Of a stretch of 32,000 bases of DNA, positions 11,606-26,365 are shown one piece after another; the stretch's first letter is position 1; each line of letters starts with the position of its first letter. A program made the position numbers and the translations under genes. Source of the DNA: Prochlorococcus marinus subsp. pastoris str. CCMP1986. GTDB lineage: Bacteria; Cyanobacteriota; Cyanobacteriia; PCC-6307; Cyanobiaceae. The notes under the pieces are model-generated. The model searched no databases. It was given only the letters and a program-made list of their open reading frames with translations, and was not told the origin of the DNA. Location of the stretch: contig NC_005072.1 in NCBI RefSeq assembly GCF_000011465.1, forward strand, positions 750,001 to 782,000, given 5' to 3'.

Positions 11606-11702
11606 TTATTTAATTTTTTAAGTGATGTATAAAATTATACAAGTGATATTTATGGTGAATATTTTCTGTTAGCTTTAGTATTCTAAAGACTTAAATGTTT
11701 TA

Positions 11703-12761: not shown

Positions 12762-12909
12762 TTAAATTTTATAGGCAATTACACTTGCCTCCTTTCCAGT
12801 TTGAACATTTTTTCTTTTTACATTTCTTTTTTTTGTTTGCATATAATTTATTAATTAGTAGAAATTCAGAATAATCTTTTCCTAAATTCATTTTATTGAT
12901 ATTGCTATT

Positions 12910-12928
12910 GATATTCATTATCATATTC
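12910..12928 (+). promoter_or_regulatory. Fur-box-like site within an array of NATWAT hexamers upstream of ferritin
   Basis: GATATTCATTATCATATTC matches the 19-bp Fur consensus GATAATGATAATCATTATC at 14/19. It is embedded in ATTGATATTGCTATTGATATTCATTATCATATTCAC (12895-12930), about 80 nt upstream of the ferritin ATG. Confidence 0.4.
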
Positions 12929-13007
12929 ACTCATATATTTTTAATCTTTTTTAAGTTACCAATTTATACAAAATGTTGTATTATTTAAATATGAATTTTA
13001 ATTGATA

Positions 13008-13562
13008 ATGACTATGAATAATTTAAAAACAAAAAAATTAGTTAATTTAGGTCCTTCTGGTAGAGCTGTTGCTCAGCCAATGGATGTTAGCTTATTGGAT
13101 AACTTTTATGAACATCTAACAATGGAAAGATATGCAAATGTTCAATATTTTTCTATTTATTTATGGTTTCAAGAAAGAGATTTAGATGGCTTTGCTTCAC
13201 ATTTTCTAAGTGAATCTCAAGGAGAAATGGAACATGCCTATAAATTTGCTAATTATTTTATTGCTCGTGGACAAACCGTAAAATTGAAGGAATTACCTGC
13301 TCCAATTCAGACATGGGATTCTATTGAGGATATAATTTCTTATTCATTCAATATGGAAGCTGATTTAACTTCTTCGTTACAACAGTTATATTCAATTTCA
13401 GAGAGAATTTCAGATACAAGAACTAGTGTTTTCTTAGATCCAATTGTGGATGCTCAAACAAAATCTGAGGATGAATTTGCTCATATATTAGGAAAAGTTA
13501 AATTTGCAGCGAATCAGCCTTCTGCAATACTTTTAATTGATAGTGATTTAAAGAAAAAATAA
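13008..13562 (+). CDS. ftn: ferritin (non-haem, Ftn-type)
   Basis: Ferroxidase-centre pattern (MERYANVQYFSIYLWF ... SQGEMEHAYKFANYF ... MEADLT ... DAQTKSEDEF). The track ORF starts at TTG 13002; ATG 13008 or 13014 is more likely. Confidence 0.8.
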   Translation: MTMNNLKTKKLVNLGPSGRAVAQPMDVSLLDNFYEHLTMERYANVQYFSIYLWFQERDLDGFASHFLSESQGEMEHAYKFANYFIARGQTVKLKELPAPIQTWDSIEDIISYSFNMEADLTSSLQQLYSISERISDTRTSVFLDPIVDAQTKSEDEFAHILGKVKFAANQPSAILLIDSDLKKK

Positions 13563-13838
13563 ATTCTTTTCTATTCTTTTTTGATCAATAGTTCTTTTAC
13601 ATTTCTCAACTAATAAACTAGAAAAACTAATATTTTCATTATTTCTATTTTTTAATACTTTTGCTATTGAAAATATCTCATTTAATCTTTGCGAGATATT
13701 TTTATTTTCATAAAATAATCTATCTCGCAATCCTACGTGTGAAGTGTTGAAATAAGCTTGATGAATATTCGTTATCCTGTAACTTAATGAGTCAACTTCT
13801 ATTAGCAAGTTATTGATTATGGATTCAGATTTATACAT
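13548..13838 (-). CDS. hypothetical protein co-transcribed with the Crp-family regulator
   Basis: ATG 13838 lies 8 nt after the Crp stop. The longer track ORF (to 13883) would overlap the Crp C-terminus. No recognisable motif. Confidence 0.45.
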   Translation of the reverse strand: MYKSESIINNLLIEVDSLSYRITNIHQAYFNTSHVGLRDRLFYENKNISQRLNEIFSIAKVLKNRNNENISFSSLLVEKCKRTIDQKRIEKNLFFL

Positions 13839-13845
13839 ATTTCGT

Positions 13846-14442
13846 TTATAAAGGGGAGGCTTCAATAAATGATGGGGCCACACTTACTGTCTGTGTTCCA
13901 AGTGGAGCTATTAATAACTCAGATGAACGGAGTTTTGAGATTAATCTTGTAGATGTTACCCGTGTTGAACCTATTAATTCTCCTATCCTTTCATGAGTAA
14001 GCCTAAAAGGTAATACGCACCATTGACCGCATCTTCTTCCGAGACGGTTAACTAATATTGAAAATAGAGCTTGTAGTCTTTGCTCTGCATTTCCAAGATG
14101 TCTTATTCTCAAGAGTTGAAGAGTCCATTCATTAACAGCATCAAATCCAGCATTTTCAGAAATATTAACATTACTTTGGAAGGACAAATCAGTTAACCCT
14201 TCTACACAAACACCTTCACTGCATAATAAATCAGTTCTTAATTGATCTCCTGATTGCAAGAAAGCAAGAGTCATCCCTTCTGTTTCTTCACATGGGCAAT
14301 ATACTCTTGCAATGCCGCTCTCAACTTCAAGACAGGTCCCCATTGGCCTCGAGGAGGGATCGATAAGAACTGACTGTCCAGTTACCATAGTTACTTTACG
14401 AACAGTTTTTGATGAATATTCTCCATAATTATGGAAATTCAT
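13846..14442 (-). CDS. Crp/Fnr-family transcriptional regulator
   Basis: 198 aa with an N-terminal cNMP-binding-like beta-roll and a C-terminal HTH (LTHERIGELIGSTRVTSTRLISKLR). Markedly higher G+C than its neighbours. Confidence 0.85.
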   Translation of the reverse strand: MNFHNYGEYSSKTVRKVTMVTGQSVLIDPSSRPMGTCLEVESGIARVYCPCEETEGMTLAFLQSGDQLRTDLLCSEGVCVEGLTDLSFQSNVNISENAGFDAVNEWTLQLLRIRHLGNAEQRLQALFSILVNRLGRRCGQWCVLPFRLTHERIGELIGSTRVTSTRLISKLRSSELLIAPLGTQTVSVAPSFIEASPL

Positions 14443-14456
14443 ATTAATTAAACTTT

Positions 14457-14475
14457 GATAATGAGAATTATTATC
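14457..14475 (+). promoter_or_regulatory. Fur box (17/19 to consensus), 15 nt upstream of the Crp-family gene start
   Basis: GATAATGAGAATTATTATC versus GATAATGATAATCATTATC. It sits inside the 7-7-7 palindrome TGATAAT-GAGAATT-ATTATCA (14456-14476). Confidence 0.6.
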
Positions 14476-14501
14476 AATTATGAATCAAATTATTCTTTAT
14501 T

Positions 14502-14520
14502 GCAATAGATTCTCATTATC
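14502..14520 (-). promoter_or_regulatory. second, inverted Fur-box-like site in the same divergent intergenic region
   Basis: The minus strand reads GATAATGAGAATCTATTGC (13/19 to consensus). Its first 12 nt, GATAATGAGAAT, are identical to the first 12 nt of site 1. Confidence 0.45.
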
Positions 14521-14599
14521 ATGGTTTATTTTGAATTTTTTCTTTACATTATTAAATCGAATATAATTTAAATGGGTGGAATTAATTTTAGAATTAGAT

Positions 14600-14791
14600 A
14601 TGAGTTCTAATAAAATCTGTTTAAATTGTGGCAGTTCCGATCTTGTCTCTGACAGATCATTAGGAGGTAGGATGGTCTGCTTTAAATGTGGTTCCTCTTC
14701 ATTTAAAAATAATTCTTTTTCGCGCATTCAAAACAAAAAGATTATTTATTTATTAATTGTCTTGGTTATTCTATTGATTGTAGTTCTTTAG
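14600..14791 (+). CDS. small zinc-ribbon protein with C-terminal membrane anchor
   Basis: MSSNKICLNCGSSDLVSDRSLGGRMVCFKCGSS has CxxC-x17-CxxC and is followed by KKIIYLLIVLVILLIVVL. The track ORF starts at GTG 14576; ATG 14600 is preferred. Diverges from the Crp gene across the Fur boxes. Confidence 0.55.
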   Translation: MSSNKICLNCGSSDLVSDRSLGGRMVCFKCGSSSFKNNSFSRIQNKKIIYLLIVLVILLIVVL

Positions 14792-15678: not shown

Positions 15679-17001
15679 TTATATTATGAGCAACAAAAAC
15701 ACGAGTGGTGCTGCATATCTTATAAATGTTTTTCTTATTATATTTATATTATTAATTACTTCCAATTTCTTAATTTCTGGAGGATATTTCAGAATTATCT
15801 CATCATAAACATTTAGTTCCTTATTTTTATTTATGTGTTTCCAAGGATTATCCTTTTCTTCAGATTTTTTATACCAATTCCAGAAATAATTAATTATTCT
15901 ATCTTCACCTAGTAATTTTATCTCGTCATTTTTTATTAAGCCTAATTTTTGATTATAAGTTTGGGTTTTAAGAATCATATAATCTTCATCAAAAATTTTG
16001 TAAAAAATCTTTTTTTGAATCTCTTTGAATAATATTAAATTATTAAGGAATTTGTTTTTAAGGAATTTCCTATAATGTCTAACTATTACTCTCGCTTTAT
16101 TATCTCCTAGGGGAATGTGATCAAGCACTTGCACATATCGTGAAGCGGCTGGATCTCCTTTATAGATTAAAATCCTTCCTGGCGGAATATACTTTATTCT
16201 TATAAATTCTTTTGTAGGATTATTTTTGTAGAAATATATACTTTCAATATAATTTGGATTGATATTTATTTTTTGATTAAAACTTACTAGAACATTTTTA
16301 TTTACATCTTTGTCTGGAATTGTATCACCATGAACCCAAAATATATGAAGTATATCCAAATGATTTTCGATAATTCTTGACCAATCACATTTAAAATCAA
16401 CTAAAACTTCTTCAGATACGGAATCTTTAACTGAAAATCCATTAGCAGTTAAATCATAATTACTAATTAATGAATCATCGTTAAATTTATTTAAATCTGT
16501 CTCTGACTTGTCAGTAAAATAAATAAAGATATAACTTTCCCTCTCTACTACTTTGAATTGAGATAAGTGAATTCTCTTTGCATAATTATCATAATTATTG
16601 TCAACAATATGACTACAGGTTATCCTATCTATATTTTGACAGTTTCCTTGAGAACTGAATCTTGCCCCATGATATGGGCATGTTAATTCACCATTAGAAA
16701 TTGAACCGCCATAAAAGGAGGAACCTCTATGAGGGCAAATATTTTTGATACATCTAACATTATTGTTCTTGTCTCTAAAAAGAAGAAGAGGTTCATCAAA
16801 CAATGAAAAATAATGAATTTTGTTTTTTTTAAGCTCTGTTGAAGGACAAATTGCATACCAGCCATGTAAACCTAATTTTAATTCTTTTTGTTTTTCTCTT
16901 ACCTCCAAATTATCTATATTAACTACAGTTCCTTTTTTAAAAGGCTTTAAAACCGTATTAATATCTTTAGTTTTAAAAAAATTAATTTGCTTATTTTCCA
17001 T
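15679..17001 (-). CDS. Rieske [2Fe-2S] domain oxygenase (PAO/Tic55-like), C-terminal membrane anchor
   Basis: CPHRGSSF...CPYHGARF Rieske motif, a mononuclear-iron-like region (ENHLDILHIFWVHGD), and a hydrophobic tail AAPLVFLLLII. Confidence 0.85.
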   Translation of the reverse strand: MENKQINFFKTKDINTVLKPFKKGTVVNIDNLEVREKQKELKLGLHGWYAICPSTELKKNKIHYFSLFDEPLLLFRDKNNNVRCIKNICPHRGSSFYGGSISNGELTCPYHGARFSSQGNCQNIDRITCSHIVDNNYDNYAKRIHLSQFKVVERESYIFIYFTDKSETDLNKFNDDSLISNYDLTANGFSVKDSVSEEVLVDFKCDWSRIIENHLDILHIFWVHGDTIPDKDVNKNVLVSFNQKININPNYIESIYFYKNNPTKEFIRIKYIPPGRILIYKGDPAASRYVQVLDHIPLGDNKARVIVRHYRKFLKNKFLNNLILFKEIQKKIFYKIFDEDYMILKTQTYNQKLGLIKNDEIKLLGEDRIINYFWNWYKKSEEKDNPWKHINKNKELNVYDEIILKYPPEIKKLEVINNINIIRKTFIRYAAPLVFLLLII

Positions 17002-17366
17002 AAACTAATATCTTTTTTTAATTTACTAGTTATCTTTGGGAACTATAACTCAAGTAAATAATCAATTTCTGTTATAAAAAAAATTCTCTATCATTTGTAG
17101 CAATATTTGGAGAAGAAATATTAGATTATCATCCTCTTAACTAATAAAGTATCTTTTAATCGTTTGAAAAGTAAATTTTGTTCTATTCTTGTGTTTTTCA
17201 AATAATTTTGTAGATTTTTCAAAATTTTGTCAAATATTTTATTTTCTAAATAACCTTATATAACTTAAATAATTTTTTCTATACCAATGAATTATCAAGT
17301 TTTAATGAATGCGATTGTTTAATAATTATTGTTAATGTAAATTAAATCAATAATATTTGGTTTTCA

Positions 17367-17711
17367 ATGTTTAAAAATATTTTTAATATTCTTTTATTAT
17401 TTCTTTTCTTGATATTCGATACCCCTGCTTATCCTATTGACTCTTCACAAAAGGCTATTGAAAAATATTCTTTAAAGATTTCCAGTAAGTTTGCAAATAC
17501 TTATTGTAACTCGATAAAATTTGGTATTTCCAAGGATGGGGCGTTGAGATTTTCAATAGGAGAGACAAATAAAGAATTTTCTTATAGTAAATTAAATAAA
17601 TTTATTGACTATGAACTTCTTAATAAAAATATTCTTCTAAGCCTAAAAAATAATTGCAAGATATTCGACTTCCCTGAATATGAATTAGACAAATTGGCAT
17701 TTAAAAACTAA
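17367..17711 (+). CDS. secreted hypothetical protein
   Basis: 114 aa with a signal-peptide-like N-terminus (MFKNIFNILLLFLFLIFDTPAYP) and two Cys. Confidence 0.5.
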   Translation: MFKNIFNILLLFLFLIFDTPAYPIDSSQKAIEKYSLKISSKFANTYCNSIKFGISKDGALRFSIGETNKEFSYSKLNKFIDYELLNKNILLSLKNNCKIFDFPEYELDKLAFKN

Positions 17712-17738
17712 ATTTTAAATATTTCCTAAAATAAAGCT

Positions 17739-17921
17739 TTATTTCTTCCCTATCCAATCATTTGGTTTCTCCATCATCCAGTCAAAAACGCCTTTTGCAT
17801 CAAGATTTCTTGAGGCAATTATGAATAATATTGGAAATAATAAAGACACTATTCCGATTACAAATATTTCTAATTTTCCAATTCCAATTTCAGAAAATGT
17901 TAAAGCAAAAATTTTAATCAT
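17739..17921 (-). CDS. small membrane protein
   Basis: 60-aa ORF with a central hydrophobic helix (IFVIGIVSLLFPILFIIA). Confidence 0.4.
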   Translation of the reverse strand: MIKIFALTFSEIGIGKLEIFVIGIVSLLFPILFIIASRNLDAKGVFDWMMEKPNDWIGKK

Positions 17922-18102
17922 TTTTTGATTGTATTACTAATTTCGTGACTGGCAATAGTTGATAAATCAATATTAGAATAATTTATGTTTATGAAAATTA
18001 TATTACTAAATTATGGCTAAATTTAAATTTAATATTTTGTATAAAGTAACTATTTAACAAGTCATATTATTTAAATAAATTATATGAAGAGTTTAATTTT
18101 TA

Positions 18103-18255
18103 ATGACGTTTAATTCATTAACCTATTTTATTGCATCGATTTTAACATTAATGATAGTTTTCTCGTTTTCTAAAATCTTTTTTAAAAGTAAAAAAAGAAG
18201 TGCAAAAAGTATTTATAAATTAATTGATGATTTAGAAAAAAAATATATTTATTAG
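18103..18255 (+). CDS. candidate 50-aa single-helix membrane protein
   Basis: Below the track threshold: MTFNSLTYFIASILTLMIVFSFSKIFFKSKKRSAKSIYKLIDDLEKKYIY, i.e. an N-terminal TM helix with a basic tail. Confidence 0.3.
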   Translation: MTFNSLTYFIASILTLMIVFSFSKIFFKSKKRSAKSIYKLIDDLEKKYIY

Positions 18256-18321
18256 ATTTCTTCAAACTACTAATTGTAATGTTATTTAATAATTGAAAAA
18301 TATTTTCATTTAGTAATTAAT

Positions 18322-18618
18322 TTAATCAAATTCAATGCCAACTTCTTCTTTAGCATCTCTATCTAAATCAGGAAGATGTGGTTCTACCCAGTGTTCTTTA
18401 TTATCGATACCTGCTGCGTTGACATAATTCATAATGTGTTGATCAACTTGCTTATATAAGTCATGAAGGTTTAAATCCATCCGAATGTCATGAGCAATTT
18501 CTGAAACTTGTTGTTCAGTTAGACAATGATCCGGATGTAATAAATCACAACAAGGAATTCTTTTTTCAATCAACTCATTTATGTTGATTTTTATTTCGTA
18601 ATCTTGATGTACAGTCAT
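18322..18618 (-). CDS. acidic hypothetical protein with Cys/His cluster
   Basis: 98-aa ORF containing CCDLLHPDHC and many D/E/H residues. No family recognised. Confidence 0.5.
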   Translation of the reverse strand: MTVHQDYEIKININELIEKRIPCCDLLHPDHCLTEQQVSEIAHDIRMDLNLHDLYKQVDQHIMNYVNAAGIDNKEHWVEPHLPDLDRDAKEEVGIEFD

Positions 18619-18817
18619 TACTGTATAAGTTAATTAGTTTCAATTTTAATTACTCTTTTATTTATTTAAGTGTTCGGTTATGAAACGAAGTTGTTTGGTT
18701 TAAGAACTTTATCTTTTTCATTCATTAATTTTAATTTTTATATGAAATGACAAGAAATTTGAAAATACACTTGCATGGATATATTTTTATGTTTGATTTA
18801 AATAAAAGACATTAATT

Positions 18818-18997
18818 ATGAAGTCATTAAGGTTCTCTAGAGAGACTAATATTTACTTGCCAAACATATTAGATAAATTTAAAAAGAAGAAATCTAGTGG
18901 AGGAGCTTTCGTTACATGGTTCCTTGTATGGTATTTTGGTTCTTCAATATTATTATTACTAAGCTTGCATTCTTATTATATGGGCTTTGCTAGATAA
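18818..18997 (+). CDS. candidate 59-aa membrane protein
   Basis: One codon below the track threshold: MKSLRFSRETNIYLPNILDKFKKKKSSGGAFVTWFLVWYFGSSILLLLSLHSYYMGFAR. Confidence 0.3.
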   Translation: MKSLRFSRETNIYLPNILDKFKKKKSSGGAFVTWFLVWYFGSSILLLLSLHSYYMGFAR

Positions 18998-19025
18998 TAA
19001 TAAACGAAGTTTTAAAAAAGTTTAA

Positions 19026-19223
19026 TTATATAAACAGGTCTTCCAAGTCCTTATATAAATCATCTTGATCTAATTGATTACTTGGAGAATCTAGTTTCTC
19101 TACCTCTACTAATGACACTTCATCTTTAGACTTGTAATAAAGATATCCAATGGCCCCGAACAAAAGAGTGAAAGGTATGATCATAATAATAATTATTGAC
19201 TTGTTTTGAATATAGTGCAACAC
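19026..19223 (-). CDS. small membrane protein divergent from the RHH gene
   Basis: 65-aa ORF with a GTG start. An internal ATG at 19184 gives a 52-aa version starting MIIPFTLLFGAIGYLYY (TM helix) with an acidic tail. Confidence 0.4.
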   Translation of the reverse strand: MLHYIQNKSIIIIMIIPFTLLFGAIGYLYYKSKDEVSLVEVEKLDSPSNQLDQDDLYKDLEDLFI

Positions 19224-19251
19224 TTACTTTAGTCAAGTGCCGAACTTTTAT

Positions 19252-19620
19252 ATGCCCACAAAGAAAAGAAGAGTTGGTTTTATCCCTAGAAGCGATGTCT
19301 TGGATCTAATAAATAAATTAAGTTTTGAAAACAATTTAAGTATTTCAAAAATAATTAATATTTTAGTAGAGGAGGCACTCTACAAAAGAGGGATATTCAA
19401 TATAAAAAATGGTAAAATTTTGAATTACGAAAACAAAATTAAATTTGATAATGAAAATCTAATAAAGATAAAGAATGATGACAAAGATATCTCTAATGAA
19501 ATTTATAATTCTGAAAATCAAAGTGATAACGTGCCGAGTCATAAATTTATTGATAAGGAAATTTATGAAAAATTTTTAATGTTCCTTCAATTTCAAGAAG
19601 AAATGAAAAAAAGGAATTAA
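19252..19620 (+). CDS. ribbon-helix-helix (CopG/Arc/MetJ-like) DNA-binding protein with low-complexity C-terminal half
   Basis: From ATG 19252: MPTKKRRVGFIPRSDVLDLINKLSFENNLSISKIINILVEEALYKRG. This is a basic N-terminus, a beta-strand (RVGFI), helix A and helix B. The rest is N/K/E-rich. Confidence 0.6.
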   Translation: MPTKKRRVGFIPRSDVLDLINKLSFENNLSISKIINILVEEALYKRGIFNIKNGKILNYENKIKFDNENLIKIKNDDKDISNEIYNSENQSDNVPSHKFIDKEIYEKFLMFLQFQEEMKKRN

Positions 19621-19736
19621 TATAAAAGTGTTGCACTGTTCAGTACAGTTAGGTACTATTTAAGGGTACATATTTTAAAATTTAAAGTCTTTGTCGAATA
19701 TTTATTTTCTGAGAATAGAAAATAAATTCAAATATT

Positions 19737-20102
19737 TTGAGGTCTTTTCCTTTTCCTTATCCATTTACTATGAATTTTTATACTCAGGAATTAAAGCTTA
19801 ACCTTTTGCCTCCAGATAAATTATATTGTGATTTTAATCATTGGAGCTCTTTGTTTACTCAAGATATGTCCATACTTTGGGAAAAGGGACATTGTGTTCC
19901 TTTAAAGAACTTACCATCCGAAGTCTCCGATATGATTTTTCCTTATTTATTATTAGCCTTATCAGACTACAAGATTTTGAACAAAAAGAATTTAAAAGGG
20001 ATTGGACTTGATAACTTATTAAACCTATGGTTTGATAAATATTCTTTGAACAAAAATGGTTATTTCCAACTTACGAGTTTAACTAGAAAAAATATAATTT
20101 AA
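19737..20102 (+). CDS. hypothetical protein
   Basis: 121-aa ORF from TTG 19737; the first ATG is at 19770 (MNFYTQELK...). No family recognised. Confidence 0.45.
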   Translation: MRSFPFPYPFTMNFYTQELKLNLLPPDKLYCDFNHWSSLFTQDMSILWEKGHCVPLKNLPSEVSDMIFPYLLLALSDYKILNKKNLKGIGLDNLLNLWFDKYSLNKNGYFQLTSLTRKNII

Positions 20103-20252
20103 ACAATAAGGTAATTAAAGATCATTTTTATAAATTTTTTCTTCAAAAGTATTCAGTATATAGATTAGATAATTTTAAAAAGTGATTGCATAATAAATAA
20201 ATTGTTAATAAAATTATCAAATGAAAAAATATTTGTAGATTTATTTATTGAA

Positions 20253-20300
20253 AGCGGACTAAATCCTCGTGGAGAAATGGACTTTAGTCCGCTCTATCTT
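20253..20300. terminator. strong hairpin between convergent genes (bidirectional terminator, or 3' end of an sRNA)
   Basis: AGCGGACTAAA (20253-20263) pairs perfectly with TTTAGTCCGCT (20283-20293) and is followed by CTATCTTTTT. The stem is unusually G+C-rich for this region. Confidence 0.5.
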
Positions 20301-20437
20301 TTTAGCAAAGGAAAATTTAAGTGGCAAGTTAAGTCTCAATTTTTATTTTAATGATATCTTTTAGCTCTGAATTTTGAATACAATTTTACCAAGTTAATTT
20401 TTTGATTTATTTAGGTTCAATATTTATAAATTATCAT

Positions 20438-20560
20438 TCATTTACTTACAAATAAAATTAGTCCACGAGTAAAGATAATTGCAACCGCGAAAAGATAAAT
20501 CCAAAACAATACCATACTTATCTTGTTCTCTAAATTACCTTTGTGATAATTGTCTTTCAT
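20438..20560 (-). CDS. candidate 40-aa single-helix membrane peptide
   Basis: Below the track threshold: MKDNYHKGNLENKISMVLFWIYLFAVAIIFTRGLILFVSK. Confidence 0.25.
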   Translation of the reverse strand: MKDNYHKGNLENKISMVLFWIYLFAVAIIFTRGLILFVSK

Positions 20561-20970
20561 TAATAATTAATAGAATATGATATTAAATATAAAAGGAATT
20601 CTAAAGTCCTATCAATAATTGTAACTTCCTGAAAAATCTCATTTGTTGGATATTGTCTAACTGATTTTTATCTAATTAAAGTTTTTAATTATTTTTTTGG
20701 AAATATTCCTCCGAATAAAACATTAATGAAAGTTTTAGTAAACGAAAGGTAAAAATTATTTTTTCTATTAATTAAATATTTAAAATTAGTGTTTATCGTT
20801 ATTATGTTATTTTTAATTTTTACGAATTTATTATCACTAGTCAAAGTTATTTTTTTCTATTATTTCTTGAATTCAATTTAATATTTCATAAAGATAATTT
20901 TCCATTCGTTATGGTTTCTTTTCATTTAAACTTGTTTTTATTAGTAAATTTTTTTTAAATTATTATTTGC

Positions 20971-21333
20971 CTATTTTTTTATATACACTTCTGGATCTGA
21001 GAAATCTACTTCAATTTGTTTTAAACGTTTTTGGTAAATAACCTCGTATTTTGAATCGAAAGGATCACGGCTTTTGTATCTATTATAATTTTGTCCTTCA
21101 TATTTTTCTAAGTTTATAAATTCTTCTACTTGCTTGATAAGATCTTTATAAATTGAAGCTCCTATAATTTGTTCTTGAGAAAGGTCTCTTGAATTTGAAT
21201 CAACATACTCAACAATTCCTTTATATGTATAAAGCCATTGTCTCCTTATCACAGGATCGAGGGCAATAACTTCTTTAACTATAAAGTTTGTACAAAGTTT
21301 CAACTTTATCTTTAAATCTTTAATATCAGTCAA
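20971..21333 (-). CDS. hypothetical protein (no Met codon anywhere; TTG start)
   Basis: 120-aa open frame with a TAA seven codons upstream of the TTG. No family recognised. Confidence 0.4.
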   Translation of the reverse strand: MTDIKDLKIKLKLCTNFIVKEVIALDPVIRRQWLYTYKGIVEYVDSNSRDLSQEQIIGASIYKDLIKQVEEFINLEKYEGQNYNRYKSRDPFDSKYEVIYQKRLKQIEVDFSDPEVYIKK

Positions 21334-21462
21334 AAAATAAGGGAAGAATGTTTAGATCATTTTAGATCAGGCTTTATATAATTACTATTTTTTTTTAGGA
21401 CTCTTATTTAATTATTCAAATTAAATTCTAGAGAAAACACAGAAAAAAATATTCTGTAAACT

Positions 21463-21708
21463 TTATTTTTGTAGCTTATAACCAAATTGAATCAATTGGT
21501 TATACGTAGATTTAATTTGTAAATGGTTTAGAGATAGACGTCTTTCTTCATTCTTTTGGACATAAAAAAAACCTTTATTGTCTAAACTTTTCTCAATTGT
21601 TACGTTTTGCTTCCCTTTATTTAGAATCCAAGGCTCTTTTTGAAAATTTTCATCTCCAAATTTGTAATCCCATGGGAAAGTTTCAGCCAATTTATTTTCT
21701 TGTGACAA
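21463..21708 (-). CDS. hypothetical protein (no Met codon anywhere; TTG start)
   Basis: 81-aa open frame, W/F/K-rich. No family recognised. Confidence 0.35.
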   Translation of the reverse strand: MSQENKLAETFPWDYKFGDENFQKEPWILNKGKQNVTIEKSLDNKGFFYVQKNEERRLSLNHLQIKSTYNQLIQFGYKLQK

Positions 21709-21995
21709 GTAAGATATTTATCGAGTAAGATTCTTTAACTTTACTCTATTTTATTGTTGTTGAACTAATTGATGGCTATATATTTACTTTTTGATTTATA
21801 AGGTCTCTCCACAAACAAGCCATTATATAAGTTAGAAGTGAGCTTGAAAATATTAAAAAAAATGATGTAGTAGTCATGTTGTTATTTGTTAAAAATACAT
21901 AGTTACACCGCTGTATAACCGATAGTTAAACAGAAGATAAATTTAAGTAAATCTCTTGGAACAGAGTTAATAATTAAACTAAGTTGAGACAATTT

Positions 21996-22190
21996 TTATG
22001 ACCTTATGGTTTTGTTTAATTCAAACTTTTCAGCTTTTTCCGTTTGACACTCAGTGTCATCTTCAGGGCATTTAATTTCTGCTTTCTTGTTCATGTGATT
22101 GTTGCAACCGCCTGCCATAACTGGTAAACCACTTGTAGCTGTGAAGCCAGTCAAACATAAGAAGGTTATGTATGGAATAATTCTTGTCAT
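21996..22190 (-). CDS. small exported Cys-containing protein, possible lipoprotein
   Basis: MTRIIPYITFLCLTGFTATSGLPVMAGG|CNNHMNKKAEIKCPEDDTECQ... has a signal peptide ending in a lipobox-like AGG-C. The mature part is about 36 aa with 3 Cys. Confidence 0.5.
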   Translation of the reverse strand: MTRIIPYITFLCLTGFTATSGLPVMAGGCNNHMNKKAEIKCPEDDTECQTEKAEKFELNKTIRS

Positions 22191-22721
22191 CTAATTGTTA
22201 CTATATGTAAACTTATTATGTTACATTTAATTCCTAACTGTGAGTAGATAGGATATTCCATTGATTTATTAATGAATTTAATTATTTGTATGTATGCTGA
22301 TAGATTTTGAAAAGACTTATTTATTTGTTTTTACTATATAAGTTCTTAATAAGCAAAAAAAAAGACTTCGATAAATAATGCCGAGCCTAAGTGATGGGGA
22401 TTTTTATTATTACAGAAATTTTTATATAGATCAACCCCCACAAATGGCGCAAGTCTTTTATGAATCACTACATGTTATCTCATTTTCTTTAAAAATTATT
22501 TTTTATTTTTTGGAAAGGCTTAGTGATGTTAATTAATTAGTTTTTTAAGCTCCTAATGTATAGTTAAATTTTATTATGCAATAGTAAATAATTATTTATT
22601 TATGGAAGTTTAATTTAATTGATTAAGCAATTAAATTTATTTATATAACTGCTACTAGGAAAGAGTTGAATTTCTAACGTCGGAAGTTAATTTATTTCTT
22701 TTTCTCTTTTTTAGAGACTTA

Positions 22722-22760
22722 ACAATATAAAAGCTTGCTTAATATCCCTATAAGCAAGCT
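22722..22760 (-). terminator. rho-independent terminator closing the hli operon
   Basis: Perfect 10-bp stem AGCTTGCTTA (22732-41) / TAAGCAAGCT (22751-60) with a 9-nt loop. On the minus strand it is followed by TTTATATTGTT. It lies 27 nt downstream of the stop of ORF 22787..23002. Confidence 0.65.
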
Positions 22761-22786
22761 CTCATGACGATTTAATTTTTAAATAT

Positions 22787-23002
22787 TTATGCTGGCAATC
22801 TACAATCAAGTTCTATTGTTCCCTCATCCATAAGGCGACCAATTTTTAAAACTAGTGCCATATCTAATCTTGAGAAATCTGATTGGTGATTTGTAATCCA
22901 ATCTAATTCAGATAAAGTTATTACTCCAGTAGTATTAACTTTGAGGAAGAGTAATCCTAAATTCATTATGCTATTAATTAGTTGCTTTTTTTCCCTTAGC
23001 AA
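22787..23002 (-). CDS. hypothetical protein, last gene of the hli operon
   Basis: 71-aa ORF from TTG; an internal ATG at 22966 gives 59 aa (MNLGLLFLKVNTTGVITLSELDWITNHQSDFSRLD...). It sits between hli genes and the terminator on the same strand. Confidence 0.4.
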   Translation of the reverse strand: MLREKKQLINSIMNLGLLFLKVNTTGVITLSELDWITNHQSDFSRLDMALVLKIGRLMDEGTIELDCRLPA

Positions 23003-23064
23003 TCATCAGTACTGGTACTAAAAGATATGCAAAGAATGAGATTAAGAAAATATCTAAATTCATT

Positions 23065-23193
23065 TTAAAAAATCCCAGGTATGATCCAGCCAAAAAGACC
23101 GTAATTAACTACTAATGCAAAAAAGCCCATCATTGCCATTCTTCCATTAGTTCTTTCTGCATTTTGCCAGTAATTAGGTTTTGAGTTTTCCAT
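23065..23193 (-). CDS. hli: high-light-inducible protein (HLIP, one-helix CAB-like), 42 aa
   Basis: Below the track threshold: MENSKPNYWQNAERTNGRMAMMGFFALVVNYGLFGWIIPGIF, with the canonical ExxNGRxAMxGF motif. Confidence 0.8.
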   Translation of the reverse strand: MENSKPNYWQNAERTNGRMAMMGFFALVVNYGLFGWIIPGIF

Positions 23194-23223
23194 TTTTTTG
23201 TTTTAGTTATTTGAAGTTTGTAT

Positions 23224-23484
23224 TTAAACGAAACCTGGAATGATTTGACCTGTAGTTAGATATGCACCAACTGCAGCTATAAGTCCGATCATTGCAAATC
23301 TACCGTTGAGAGTTTCTGCAACAACTTTTTCCTTCTCGATTGTTTTAGTTTTTGTGTTTGAGTTTGTCATTTGATTTTTGTTTGAGTAGATTAAATTTTC
23401 TTCTTGAAATTGTTTAGTTAGGGAAGCAACGAGTAAAGCAGTTAGAGATACAATTAAAATCAAAAAAACTGCTAGTGGACTCAT
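23224..23484 (-). CDS. hli: high-light-inducible protein, possibly with an extra N-terminal helix (86 aa from ATG 23484; 48 aa from ATG 23370)
   Basis: The C-terminus AETLNGRFAMIGLIAAVGAYLTTGQIIPGFV is a canonical HLIP. The in-frame upstream segment MSPLAVFLILIVSLTALLVASLTKQ begins at an ATG overlapping the previous stop (TAATG). Confidence 0.8.
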   Translation of the reverse strand: MSPLAVFLILIVSLTALLVASLTKQFQEENLIYSNKNQMTNSNTKTKTIEKEKVVAETLNGRFAMIGLIAAVGAYLTTGQIIPGFV

Positions 23485-23693
23485 TAAAAAATACCTGGAA
23501 TGATTTGACCTGTTGTTACGTATGCACCTAATAATGCTACGAAGCCAATCATTGCCCAACGACCGTTAACTTTTTCTGCGTTTTGAGGATAGCCGTCATA
23601 AGAAACTGACTCATCTATGTAAGGACGAGTTTCTGATGGAAACATGTTTTGTCTTCCGCCAGACTCAGTTGTTGTGTATGAAGAATTTGACAT
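23484..23693 (-). CDS. hli: high-light-inducible protein, 69 aa
   Basis: NAEKVNGRWAMIGFVALLGAYVTTGQIIPGIF. Its ATG overlaps the stop of the preceding hli (TAATG). Confidence 0.9.
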   Translation of the reverse strand: MSNSSYTTTESGGRQNMFPSETRPYIDESVSYDGYPQNAEKVNGRWAMIGFVALLGAYVTTGQIIPGIF

Positions 23694-23800
23694 TAGAAAA
23701 AACCAGGAATTATTTGACCAGTTGTTACGTATGCGCCAACAGCTGCTACGAAACCAAGCATTGCTGCTAAGCCGTTAAATCTTTCTGCGTCAGGTGTCAT
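23693..23800 (-). CDS. hli: minimal high-light-inducible protein, 35 aa, with Leu replacing the motif Arg
   Basis: Below the track threshold: MTPDAERFNGLAAMLGFVAAVGAYVTTGQIIPGFF. The helix is nearly identical to its neighbours, but ExxNGR is ExxNGL. Confidence 0.75.
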   Translation of the reverse strand: MTPDAERFNGLAAMLGFVAAVGAYVTTGQIIPGFF

Positions 23801-23997
23801 AATTAAAATTTGATTATGTAAACAAATATAACACAACTATTAATGAATGTAAAGATATTGGCCTCTATTAGTGCTTAAATAGTATTTTCTATACATTTTT
23901 GATACATTAATGTATAAAGTCATTAAACTTATCTATTTATTGTTAACAAGTAAGATTTTGAAAAATAATAAACAATTATTTATGAAACTTTTTAGGT

Positions 23998-24200
23998 ATG
24001 GAATATGATTTTATTAGTGGGATACTTGAATTAATCCAAAATCAAATCTTTTAGATAATGAAAGAAAAGTAAATAAAGAAAAGGCTATTGATGAAATAGT
24101 AAAAATAATTCAGGATTTTCAATACAATGATGAACTTAGTGAGAAATATAAATGGAAAAGAAATCTGATTCTATTTTTAAGCACCTTCTTTAAGTATTAA
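23998..24200 (+). pseudogene. frame-disrupted small ORF
   Basis: ATG 23998 opens MEYDFISGILELIQNQIF and hits TAG at 24052. The -1 frame is open from 24030 to TAA 24198-24200 (..LDNERKVNKEKAIDEIVKIIQDFQYNDELSEKYKWKRNLILFLSTFFKY) but has no start codon. The switch point is the T-run at 24049-24052. Confidence 0.3.
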
Positions 24201-24344
24201 CTTAAGTTGATCGCTATCTAGTTGTTCTAAATAATTTCTCATTGCAAGCCATGATCTTTCGCTTTCTATCTTTCCGCTTTGTTTAAAAAAAATTGCGGAA
24301 ACTTGATCTACTAATTCTTTATGAGTCATATACATATGCTTCAT
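24177..24344 (-). CDS. candidate 55-aa protein, third member of an overlapping cassette
   Basis: Below the track threshold: MKHMYMTHKELVDQVSAIFFKQSGKIESERSWLAMRNYLEQLDSDQLKLILKEGA. Overlaps the preceding ORF by 26 nt. Confidence 0.35.
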   Translation of the reverse strand: MKHMYMTHKELVDQVSAIFFKQSGKIESERSWLAMRNYLEQLDSDQLKLILKEGA

Positions 24345-24459
24345 CAGGTTTAATTACAAAACCATTAAAAAATTCAGCTAATAACTTTGATGGATCTTGA
24401 GCAGATATTTTCCTATCCTCTTTGGATAGTTCCTTTTTAATTAGATTTAGGTACTTCAT
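24319..24459 (-). CDS. candidate 46-aa protein, second member of an overlapping cassette
   Basis: Below the track threshold: MKYLNLIKKELSKEDRKISAQDPSKLLAEFFNGFVIKPDEAYVYDS. Its ATG overlaps the TGA of the 99-aa ORF (ATGA). Confidence 0.3.
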   Translation of the reverse strand: MKYLNLIKKELSKEDRKISAQDPSKLLAEFFNGFVIKPDEAYVYDS

Positions 24460-24755
24460 GCCGATTCAGGTAATTCTAGTTCCTCAAAAGTCCAACCTTC
24501 TAGTTGAAGATCATGCCATTTATCCCAGGCTTTTTCCAAATGCATTTGACTTGATGACTTGATTGCTGAGGGCTCACCAAGATCGTTTGCATAATATTTA
24601 TGGGCAAAAATCATGATATTATTTCTGGTTGATTTTTCATTTCTTGTAAATAAAATTAGTCTGCTGCGATCGGGGTTAAGAAGCCAACCACTTGGGGACT
24701 CATTACGATAACCATAAGAAAAATTAGACCAAACATTAGCTGCTCCAAGGTTCAT
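24456..24755 (-). CDS. hypothetical protein (possibly a marine-picocyanobacterial DUF family)
   Basis: 99-aa ORF, W-rich (GWLLNPDRSRLILF ... AWDKWHDLQLEGW). ATG start. Confidence 0.5.
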   Translation of the reverse strand: MNLGAANVWSNFSYGYRNESPSGWLLNPDRSRLILFTRNEKSTRNNIMIFAHKYYANDLGEPSAIKSSSQMHLEKAWDKWHDLQLEGWTFEELELPESA

Positions 24756-24814
24756 TGCTTAGTAATACATGTGTACTACTAATATAAGCCAATGGTAATT
24801 AAATCGTCAAGTAT

Positions 24815-25090
24815 TTAATTATTAACTTTGAGTTTTTCTCTTAATTCTGGAAAGCTATTTGCAATATGGATTAACTCATAAACCTCTTCACTATCATATT
24901 TTTTATCCGGAACTCCACTTCCTACTTCTATTCCTTTATCTTTCATTTTCTTTAGGATCAGTTCTTGTCTTTCTTGCCTTGTCATCGATTTATATTTTTT
25001 TCTTATTTCTTCTTTATCCATAATAATTAAAGCTAATGCAATTGTTCCAATACTAAAAATTAAGCTCCATCCCTTCGAGTTTATAGGCAA
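24815..25090 (-). CDS. hypothetical protein with N-terminal membrane helix
   Basis: 91-aa ORF from TTG with WSLIFSIGTIALALIIM followed by a charged helical tail. Confidence 0.4.
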   Translation of the reverse strand: MPINSKGWSLIFSIGTIALALIIMDKEEIRKKYKSMTRQERQELILKKMKDKGIEVGSGVPDKKYDSEEVYELIHIANSFPELREKLKVNN

Positions 25091-25503
25091 TTTATATATA
25101 ATTTCTATTTGATTATCTTATTAAATAGTGATTGTAATAAAACATAAAAATATTTAATTTATAGTATTAAAAATTTAATTACCATAGGTAATACCTATCT
25201 CCTCATTTCTTCTTAATTCGGCTTATGTCCTCCCTAGCCCACTACTATCGCTATCACTAAATTCTATATATTAATTTTTAAATACAGTTCCAGGTATGGG
25301 TTTATCGTACTAAAGTATAAATACTGGGTCTCTATGTATAAAAAATCATACAAGAAGACATTAATCTATAGTAAAAGCATTACGCAAAGATATATCAGCT
25401 AAAACAAGAAAACTTTATAAATTAGCACCGAAGAAGATATAGATCAGTAGCTGTATTGTTAGGTCACTCAAAGTAGTCAACCCTTCTCCTCGTTTAGTTG
25501 AGT

Positions 25504-25611
25504 TTAAAAATAAGGAGTATATGGAACTTCAGAATTTAGTGAGTCACCATAATAGCTTTCTGCTGACTTCTCTAATAACCAGTACAAGAAATTAACAAAT
25601 GGTTTCTGCAT
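25504..25611 (-). CDS. micro-ORF A (35 aa), paralogue of micro-ORF B
   Basis: MQKPFVNFLYWLLEKSAESYYGDSLNSEVPYTPYF. It shares a 21-residue core with ORF B and has many synonymous codon differences (see findings). Confidence 0.45.
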   Translation of the reverse strand: MQKPFVNFLYWLLEKSAESYYGDSLNSEVPYTPYF

Positions 25612-25673
25612 AAGAATCTCTATTTCTATAGTCATTCAAATTCATATCTCTAATTTAAAGGACGTAAAAATAC

Positions 25674-25796
25674 TTATTTAGAAAAAGATCGAATCGTATT
25701 AGAAGGGACTTTTATTGGAACTAAAGATTTACCGTAGTGTGATTCGGCTGATCTCATCAGTAACCAGTAAAAGAAATTTACTAAAGCAGTCTCCAC
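25674..25796 (-). CDS. micro-ORF B (40 aa, GTG start), paralogue of micro-ORF A
   Basis: (M)ETALVNFFYWLLMRSAESHYGKSLVPIKVPSNTIRSFSK. There is a stop (TAA) two codons upstream of the GTG. Confidence 0.45.
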   Translation of the reverse strand: METALVNFFYWLLMRSAESHYGKSLVPIKVPSNTIRSFSK

Positions 25797-26365
25797 AAGG
25801 ATTTAGTAACTGACCTAAGAAACCTTATTCGAAGTGTATTAGCAATATACAAAACTCTAATATCAAGCAATCAAGACATTTGTATCAGTATGAACTATTT
25901 AGTTACTTAAACAAATCATTATTACTCAAACACATAAAACTAATTAATGATAAACAATAACAAATTAATAAAATATTAAATTTAAGTGGAAATAAATTTC
26001 CTCTAGGTTGTTGTTAAACATAGCTATCTGTATTTTGGTATTTGTTATTTAGATTTTTTTACCAAGCTTTTTGTAATAGTTAATTAATAGATGTCTTTAA
26101 TTTTCTTACTAATTCCTTACCTCTCTTGGTTAAAAAAGTCAGTCTCTTCTCCTATCAGCAGGATCTTCCATTTTTGATATAAGTCCTATTCCAGAGACTT
26201 CCCTCTTAGTCTATAAGCAGATAACCAATCTGTATTTCTGCTAAAACTAGCTTTGTCCATTTTAGTTATCATTTTCAGGGTTTTTGAGTGTACTAGCTTC
26301 CTTCCTATTCCATTACTTTCCGATTCGTGATAACTAAGTTATTACCCCAAACCTATTGCAAGCAC

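Follow-up and report, generated by a model that had tools for sequence, protein, structure and literature searches.

A Crp/Fnr-family regulator gene (crp) in a stretch of Prochlorococcus DNA, 32,000 nucleotides (nt) long and referred to here as the window, very probably has a functional double operator of the Fur family on its promoter. The protein that binds it is most likely, if some way from certainly, the iron sensor Fur. Sequences, operator geometry, positions relative to predicted promoter hexamers, conservation and gene neighbourhoods are observed; the binding protein, the sense of regulation, the transcription start and the targets of the Crp-family protein are inferred. The gene under the operator pair (13846-14442, minus strand) encodes a protein of 198 aa with matches to the Pfam families HTH_Crp_2 and Crp. 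A spacer with a G+C content (GC) of 17% separates it from a divergent gene for a zinc-ribbon protein.

Operators on the predicted crp core promoter

The initial annotation placed a classical Fur box in this spacer, and the position, match and symmetry of the box are borne out. Box 1, GATAATGAGAATTATTATC at 14457-14475 on the plus strand, has two mismatches to the E. coli Fur consensus GATAATGATAATCATTATC (a match at 17/19 positions), and with its flanks (14456-14476) it reads TGATAAT-GAGAATT-ATTATCA, a 7-7-7 palindrome in which the outer heptamers are perfect inverted repeats. It is alone in 32 kb at up to two mismatches to the consensus; dinucleotide-preserving shuffles yield 0.09 matches on average in 32 kb at up to three mismatches, and shuffles of the region give p <= 0.003 for the consensus match. 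The 12-mer GATAATGAGAAT, which forms the first 12 bases of box 1, is repeated in inverted orientation on the minus strand at 14509-14520 (box 2), and the window holds exact copies at these two places only, with no third (shuffles yield 0.63 matches at up to one mismatch). The reported distances to the start codons hold as well: box 1 lies 14 nt from the crp ATG (14440-14442), and box 2 lies 79 nt from the zinc-ribbon ATG (14600).

Scanning genomes with the Crp-family protein as query gave 80 loci, all HLII-like Prochlorococcus (HLII, high-light clade II) with 90-94% protein identity, and 79 distinct HLII orthologous spacers were aligned. A distant set of 16 loci comes from another high-light lineage (L081, 29% GC), from low-light (LL) clades (L083-L085 and L093, 37-39% GC) and from Cyanobium and Synechococcus (L086-L092 and L094-L096, 64-70% GC); the Synechococcus locus L097 enters the comparison of other promoters.

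Both operators are 17-bp sites that fit TTGNNA-N5-TNNCAA, each a 7-1-7 inverted repeat about a central base, and their starts are 39 bp apart. The proximal operator, TTGATAATAATTCTCAT (14461-14477, minus strand; HLII column identity 0.989), has the 7-1-7 core TGATAATAATTCTCA at 14462-14476, where TGATAAT-A-ATTCTCA shows no mismatch to TGAKAATNATTMTCA. Box 1 consists of the proximal operator and an extra hexamer present in HLII, and it is because this hexamer extends the operator that the E. coli consensus is matched at so many positions. The distal operator, ATGAGAATCTATTGCAA (14500-14516, minus strand; HLII column identity 0.987), is made up of TGAGAAT, one further base and a degenerate half that ends in the predicted -35 hexamer. 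The second 12-mer is no duplicate of the full box: the deeply kept part is a single TGAGAAT half-site paired with the -35 hexamer TTGCAA, and the GATAAT hexamer is specific to HLII. A palindrome beside box 2, TATTGCAATA, was considered as a separate site and rejected; it is not palindromic in other lineages, and its kept part is the -35 hexamer.

A consensus promoter scan finds TTGCAA-17-CATAAT on the crp strand: TTGCAA (14500-14505) is the predicted -35 hexamer and CATAAT (14477-14482) the predicted -10 hexamer, both on the minus strand. The two hexamers are invariant in the 79 HLII spacers while the 17-nt stretch between them is only 82% conserved, which is the pattern of a real promoter. 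TTGCAA is also found in every distant ortholog, together with equivalent -10 hexamers (TAGATT, TAGAGT or TATAGG, read by eye). The operators overlap the predicted -35 hexamer and the -10/start region, a consensus prediction that is supported by conservation: the -35 hexamer is the right half of the distal operator, and the proximal operator shares its first base with the end of the -10 hexamer and extends over the predicted transcription start (about 14470).

Conservation of the operator pair across lineages

Box 1 is exact in 71 of the 79 HLII spacers and the second 12-mer in 74, of which only GAGAAT (within TGAGAAT) is kept beyond HLII. Both boxes are far better kept across strains than the surrounding spacer: mean identity is 0.990 over the operator and hexamer columns versus 0.763 over 85 unassigned spacer columns (Mann-Whitney p = 4e-18), and the insertions and deletions seen among HLII spacers fall in 5' untranslated regions and between conserved blocks, outside the boxes.

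The architecture of the operator pair recurs from high-light Prochlorococcus (about 30% GC) to Cyanobium and Synechococcus, with a spacing of 39 bp in all distant orthologs but L081 (40 bp). At the same position as in the window, the proximal palindrome reads TTGATAATAATTATCAA (L081), TTGAGATCACTTCTCAA (L083), TTGAGAGCAATTCTCAA (L093), TTGCGAGTCATTCGCAA (L088 and L090) or TTGAGAGCCGTTCGCAA (L096), its variants over the lineages being TTGATAataatTATCAA, TTGAGAtcactTCTCAA, TTGAGAgcaatTCTCAA, TTGCGAgtcatTCGCAA and TTGAGAgccgtTCGCAA. The two halves of the palindrome covary (TTGAGA/TCTCAA, TTGCGA/TCGCAA, TTGATA/TATCAA), as expected for the site of a symmetric dimer. The distal site is TTGAGAATCGCTTGCAA in low-light Prochlorococcus and the high-GC relatives and TTGAGAACCTATTGCAA in L081, and over the lineages it follows the pattern (T)TGAGAA(T/C), a 3-base spacer and (C/A)TTGCAA.

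In the genomes of 64-70% GC the operators form AT-rich islands at the same promoter position; a scan of 20.6 kb of DNA at 64% GC (L094) and of 6 kb at 69.5% GC (L096) finds TTGNNA-N5-TNNCAA at the two operators and nowhere else. The gene upstream of the operators varies, being the zinc-ribbon gene in high-light loci, a peroxiredoxin-like or second ferritin gene in low-light loci and a Fur-family gene in most high-GC loci; the operator pair therefore belongs to crp.

Chance matches without function in extremely AT-rich intergenic DNA would be one way to account for the boxes, and in a spacer of such low GC loose AT-rich motifs are indeed abundant: the Anabaena FurA 19-mer consensus, at up to five mismatches, finds 41 matches in the window where about 25 are expected. 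At the threshold met by box 1, however, shuffles give only the 0.09 matches reported above, the sites are about 99% conserved against a background of 76%, and genomes of 64-70% GC retain them at the corresponding place in the promoter. Given the conservation of the operator pair across lineages, we regard chance as excluded for all practical purposes.

Candidate proteins for the operators

Odd length, a central base and a symmetric G and C 11 bp apart, as in TGATAAT-N-ATTATCA, give the sites the geometry of Fur-family operators. The palindromes might instead be autoregulatory sites of the Crp-family protein. This protein is conserved from HLII to Cyanobium with 82% mean column identity, and has six invariant cysteines (C49, C51, C74, C79, C138 and C142) and the motifs YCPCEETEG, LCSEGVCVE and RRCGxWC; the cysteines suggest a bound metal or iron-sulfur (Fe-S) centre, or redox sensing. 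Pfam detects no cNMP-binding domain in it, and assignment to PtrA or to NtcA was rejected (40 bits against an NCBIfam cut-off of 300, and 30 bits against 245, respectively). Its recognition helix, GSTRVTSTRL, is near-identical to GSTRVTVTRL of NtcA, and GTA-N8-TAC-like targets are predicted on that account. Autoregulation is common among Crp/Fnr-family regulators, the operator pair follows crp whatever the neighbouring genes, with the full motif in high-GC loci only at the crp promoter, and the TTG...CAA ends resemble FNR/FixK boxes. However, FNR (TTGAT-N4-ATCAA) and CRP sites are of even length with 8 bp between symmetric positions, while the operators are odd-length 17-mers with a central base and the wider spacing of G and C given above. 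In relatives, half-sites of this type also precede fur and the futA operon. As the helix is NtcA-like, the spacer has no GTA-N8-TAC, and FNR and CRP sites are even in length and shorter in spacing, autoregulation appears highly improbable.

Fur itself finds a close parallel in Anabaena sp. PCC 7120, where the footprint-derived FurA consensus is AAATAAATTCTCAATAAAT and the furA promoter has the sites ATAAATATTCTCAATAAGC and TGTTATATTCTCAATTAAC (Gonzalez et al. 2014, PMC4005646). The proximal site of Cyanobium, CGATTCATTCTCAATAAGC, has the 13-mer ATTCTCAATAAGC in common with the first of these, and the half-site ATTCTCA(AT), identical to the core of the furA-promoter sites, is found in the proximal site of HLII, the low-light clades and Cyanobium and in the distal site of all lineages. 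The two promoters are further alike in having AT-rich operators of 19-23 bp with the core ATTCTCAAT that can be interpreted as 7-1-7, and in having two sites that overlap promoter elements, predicted ones at crp, and control a regulator gene, as the sites at crp probably do. They differ in that the high-light half-sites here have drifted from TGAGA to TGATA, so as to resemble enterobacterial Fur and cyanobacterial Zur boxes, and in that the predicted target here is a Crp-family gene and not fur; the operators at crp are predictions from sequence. Scored as a palindrome, TGAGAAT-N-ATTCTCA agrees with all lineages (1-3 mismatches, p <= 0.02); agreement with the Zur-type TGATAAT-N-ATTATCA is limited to the high-light clades. 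The Anabaena 19-mer consensus, with the excess of matches noted above, is uninformative as a scanner of the AT-rich window.

With the E. coli Fur box and the 7-1-7 model of Baichoo and Helmann, box 1 has in common the 17/19 match, the hexamer or 7-1-7 organisation, the central base and an overlap with the predicted -10 hexamer and start that would allow repression by occlusion. The close match is, however, confined to high-light sites, higher-GC orthologs matching 11-12 of 19 positions, and the E. coli consensus describes cyanobacterial Zur better than cyanobacterial Fur. The classical look of box 1 is best explained by a shift from TGAGA to TGATA in the high-light clades plus the one extra hexamer. 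Of the classical Fur box first described, the match is real, but its core is the same as that of the cyanobacterial Zur consensus. The case for Fur rests on the TGAGAAT/ATTCTCA half-site that the higher-GC relatives keep.

The gene context is one of iron. The initial annotation's list of neighbours (the Crp-family and CxxC-x17-CxxC proteins, ferritin, two ABC ATPases and a Rieske oxygenase) is confirmed by family matches, the cluster in the window comprising ferritin, a FutC-like ATPase, a second ABC ATPase and a Rieske protein. Across loci the recurrent crp neighbours are ferritin, FutC, FutA-FutB and a Som-type porin, with futA-futB beside crp in L088, L089, L095 and L096. A search with a Synechococcus FutA query, aimed at Prochlorococcus idiA loci, yielded high-GC relatives. 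None of fur, zur, idiA, isiB, the zinc-uptake genes (znuABC, COG0523) or bmtA was found within the 32-kb window. Lone TTGAGAA half-sites lie upstream of fur (L086 and L088) and of the futA operon (L096), where our estimate from the base composition of these genomes is about 0.1 expected occurrences of the heptamer per locus. In L086-L092 the gene next upstream of crp, on the same strand, is of the Fur family, and L094 likewise has a Fur-family gene upstream. The crp-linked product scores 50 bits against SynZur (7ne9), compared with 175 bits for a CobW-linked paralog in L096 (the paralogs are 36% identical), and is therefore not Zur. It scores 62-75 bits against Fur structures and 61.5 bits against B. 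subtilis PerR, values that do not separate the two.

Two further features of these loci are recorded here as observations. In L096 the Zur-like paralog and a CobW_C (COG0523-type) gene, at 35-442 and 1697-2092, lie about 2 kb from futA-futB-crp, so that zinc and iron regulators are near neighbours in this genome. In Prochlorococcus the cluster is rearranged and fur lies elsewhere, compared with its position directly upstream of crp in most high-GC relatives.

Zur has been proposed for this cluster before. In the MED4 cluster of FutC, ferritin and the Rieske protein, Barnett et al. (2012) described “potential Zur boxes”, which they read as zinc-iron crosstalk (PMC3323870); the classical-Fur-box look of the high-light sites explains that description. 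On this reading the zinc sensor would repress crp and act at the ferritin/FutC cluster. The RegPrecise cyanobacterial Zur consensus NTNANAATGATNATCATTNTNAN finds its best match in the window in box 1, with two mismatches (14/16 specified positions; PMC9337993); L081 has TGATAATAATTATCA, which agrees fully with the 7-1-7 Zur consensus of Anabaena; and the divergent high-light gene encodes a zinc-ribbon protein. Known cyanobacterial Zur boxes (RegPrecise; TGATAATNATTATCA of Anabaena; SynZur boxes at znuA/znuC and bmtA; PMC9337993, PMC3323870) have the same family geometry, the high-light sites match them near-perfectly, and two of them flank the -35 and -10 hexamers at bmtA as the operators do the predicted hexamers here. 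Unlike these, the sites at crp keep deeply a G at position 4 and a C at position 12 (TGAGA...TCTCA), not T and A, and they stand in an iron gene context in which the linked Fur-family gene is not a Zur ortholog, as its 50 bits to SynZur, against 175 for the CobW-linked paralog, indicate. The low-light orthologs have 5-6 mismatches to NTNANAATGATNATCATTNTNAN or TGATAATNATTATCA, no better than shuffles (p 0.1-0.47); for high-GC orthologs the same test is non-discriminating. Moreover, znuABC and COG0523 genes were not found in the window, and in Synechococcus WH8102 the zur mutant and zinc conditions had only six differentially expressed genes in common, of which bmtA and synw0360 were down and synw0970-0973 (znuC, znuA and two unknowns) were up (PMC9337993). 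Taken together, the evidence makes Zur an unlikely occupant of these sites.

Several points weigh against Fur as the binding protein. The full operator is absent from the futA promoters of the relatives examined, including L094 and L097, and the high-light sites fit the cyanobacterial Zur consensus about as well as that of Fur, as the box 1 and L081 matches above illustrate. The palindrome TGAGAAT-N-ATTCTCA is our own idealisation of the Anabaena core and is unpublished as a matrix; because it is self-constructed, it is the match to the Anabaena FurA sites themselves that provides independent support. The Fur-family paralog adjacent to crp in Cyanobium could be PerR-like rather than Fur. Expression data are reached through a presumed identity: we take the crp of the window to be the ortholog of MED4 PMM0806, probably so from gene order (FutC, ferritin, small open reading frame (ORF), crp, ATPase, Rieske) along the MED4 map. 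In favour of Fur, PMM0806/PMT0502, annotated “bacterial regulatory proteins, Crp family”, is among only 34 genes common to the iron-correlated modules of MED4 and MIT9313 (PMC3598940, Table S5), a module list obtained by re-analysis of the iron arrays of Thompson et al. 2011. That table shows the direction of change by colour, and the entry is taken here as a link to iron of either sign. Against Fur, a 2026 preprint on MED4 iModulons assigns the gene to modules associated with RpaB and Rre1, no iron module being reported.

A third Fur paralog of the PerR-like, FurC type might also be considered, in which case crp and the ferritin/peroxiredoxin cluster would answer to peroxide or redox stress and not to iron as such. 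The near-equal scores of the crp-adjacent protein for Fur and for PerR given above are consistent with this, as are the AhpC-TSA_2 peroxiredoxin-like gene and second ferritin inserted beside crp in low-light loci, the six invariant cysteines of the Crp-family protein, and the naming of PMM0806 in the 2026 preprint as a putative redox-responsive regulator, grouped with RpaB and proteostasis modules. Set against them are an operator core, ATTCTCAAT, that is the same as in the footprinted Anabaena FurA sites, the recurrence of FutA-FutB and ferritin as neighbours, and the presence of PMM0806/PMT0502 in iron-correlated modules of both strains. We judge a PerR-like regulator to be a rather unlikely candidate. 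Fur thus remains the preferred reading: its control of crp is well supported by inference, while the identity of the regulator as Fur is unproven.

A possible iron circuit and the surrounding genes

From the operators, their place on the predicted promoter and the gene context we infer a direction of regulation, namely repression. Under iron sufficiency, metal-loaded Fur would occupy both operators and exclude RNA polymerase from the -35 hexamer and the start site; as iron falls, Fur would leave and crp would be transcribed together with the small ORF downstream. The Crp-family protein might then act as a second-tier regulator of neighbouring iron genes, probably via NtcA-like sites. In its complete form this is a two-tier iron circuit, conserved in the Prochlorococcus-Synechococcus-Cyanobium lineage, in which Fur directly represses a Cys-rich Crp/Fnr regulator with an Fe-S or redox centre; that regulator, in place of Fur, would drive through such sites the iron-stress genes without full Fur boxes (futA/idiA, the FutC-like ATPase and ferritin); we put it forward tentatively, as a scheme more open to doubt than the operators on which it builds. 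If it is true, iron supply (through Fur) and Fe-S/redox status (through the Crp-family protein) would be combined in a feed-forward loop in organisms that are poor in regulators.

The small ORF (13548-13838, minus strand; about 96 aa from an ATG at 13838) lies immediately downstream of crp, has no Pfam or NCBIfam match and is probably co-transcribed with it. An ORF of 88-108 aa is called at the same position in L081, L083, L085, L086, L087 and L093, and such an ORF is found in all Prochlorococcus loci examined and in Cyanobium L086/L087. Its conservation is weak but consistent; it is fast-evolving, with few conserved positions (S..I..L..E, FL.E...R).

Second-tier iron regulators of the Crp/Fnr family have precedents. 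IdiB of Synechococcus elongatus is an iron-responsive example, and such genes sit in neighbourhoods of idiA/futA, ferritin/dps or isiAB. Tery_1663, a Crp/Fnr regulator of Trichodesmium, stands beside isiAB with an adjacent small hypothetical gene, and both are more than 100-fold up in low iron (PMC12090762). The crp gene of the window and its downstream ORF, likewise among iron genes, recall this pair; the low-iron induction is a feature of Trichodesmium. IdiB and Tery_1663 are likened to the present family by gene context, homology aside, the family in the window being marked by its six invariant cysteines and NtcA-like helix. In the literature we found no study of the crp/zinc-ribbon gene pair and no experimental characterisation of this Crp family.

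The zinc-ribbon gene (14600-14791, plus strand) encodes a CxxC-x17-CxxC protein of 63 aa with a weak match to Zn_Ribbon_TF and a C-terminal hydrophobic tail, by which it would be membrane-anchored. In 78 of 94 loci, each of them high-light, its ORF is unbroken and carries a conserved C..CGSS..VSDRSLGG..VC..CGSS motif, while the low-light and high-GC loci among the 94 lack it; the gene is real and confined to the high-light clades. A TATAAT at 14562-14567 (plus strand), found by eye in a conserved block (14559-14570, identity 0.96), is its likely -10 hexamer and has no accompanying -35; TTTACA (14543-14548) was rejected for that role, being only 13 nt from TATAAT. With a start predicted at about 14574, the operators are centred about 62 and 105 bp upstream, and hence outside the zinc-ribbon core promoter. 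The initial annotation had Fur control both divergent genes. The part concerning crp stands, in that operators of Fur-family geometry lie on the predicted crp core promoter and a cascade from a metal regulator to a Crp-family protein is the best reading. Control of the zinc-ribbon gene by the operators is not supported: no clade other than the high-light ones has the gene, and the place of the operators with respect to crp is constant under changes of neighbour, though they may affect upstream contacts of the zinc-ribbon promoter. Between the distal operator and TATAAT there is also a conserved block, TTTTTCTTTACAT (14537-14549; HLII column identity 0.97), which at 13 nt is too close for a -35.

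A second Fur-type 7-1-7 site in the window, TGATATTCATTATCA (12909-12923), occupies the spacer that separates ferritin from a Cys-rich mini-ORF, some 90 bp upstream of the former, in a block (12898-12927) conserved in 75 HLII spacers. Its orthologs are TGAGAACCATTAGCA (L083), TGAGATTGATTCGCA (L085), TGATAGTGATTCTCA (L093) and TTGCAATCGATTCTC (L097, Synechococcus), which are clearer than the site in the window, those of the low-light loci being of the TGAGA/TCTCA type. The site probably belongs to the same regulon as the crp operators; placed upstream of the predicted ferritin core promoter, it would also suit activation or anti-repression.

The Cys-rich mini-ORF (12769-12930, minus strand, ending in ...CKKKKCSNWKGGKCNCL) is flanked by the FutC-like gene and by ferritin, from which it diverges, and a Fur-type site falls in its promoter region. 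Counterparts are present in L086 (4940-5149), L096 (5127-5267) and L097 (5095-5250), and the motif C-x4-C-S-x-WKGG-x-C-x-C is kept in the protein sequence in low-light Prochlorococcus (L093), Cyanobium and Synechococcus, e.g. GCRKKKCSKWKGGKCCCGRE. Its product is possibly a small metal-binding protein of the same sort as Synechocystis IsiE. Immediately beyond the stop codon of the FutC-like gene, a strongly conserved stretch (12770-12835) contains the hairpin GGCAA-TTACAC-TTGCC and a run rich in T. On the opposite strand this stretch corresponds to the 3' coding end of the mini-ORF, and it may be both terminator and coding sequence.

Two palindromes of the even-length kind occur near these genes. 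A conserved 6-4-6 palindrome, ATACAAAATGTTGTAT (12966-12981), overlaps the predicted -10 hexamer of ferritin (TATTAT, 12979-12984, with a -35 TTACCA at 12956-12961); its counterpart in low-light loci is TGTATCATT(T/A), with the full TGTATCATTTATTACA in L083, and either the Crp-family protein or NtcA might bind it. A perfect NtcA-type palindrome, TGTATAAAATTATACA (11626-11641), lies about 60 nt upstream of the FutC-like ATPase gene and is a candidate target of a Crp-family protein with an NtcA-like helix. It is kept as TGTATAA(T/A)TTTATACA in 64 of 80 HLII loci and not in other clades, and because its conservation is limited to HLII we retain it as a side observation only. From about 17000 to 26000 the ORFs are all short and, one DUF1651 apart, have no Pfam match; this neighbour of the iron cluster has the appearance of a variable, island-like region.

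Earth's most abundant phototroph, Prochlorococcus frequently meets iron shortage, is not yet genetically manipulable and has only about 30 regulators; two microarray experiments supply most of what is known of its iron regulatory network. A repressor site of the Fur family on top of a promoter is textbook knowledge, the locus had been flagged earlier as having possible Zur boxes, and an iron response was hinted at in published data; what is new here is such a switch at an unstudied but very conserved crp gene. The “Zur boxes” of the iron gene cluster are probably Fur sites that have drifted toward the Zur or enterobacterial form in the AT-rich high-light genomes, and a match to the E. coli consensus can thus point to the wrong paralog in cyanobacteria. 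The Crp-family regulator is probably under iron control in Prochlorococcus and its relatives, and the conserved double operator on this 82%-conserved gene offers a concrete link from a metal sensor to a second-tier regulator.

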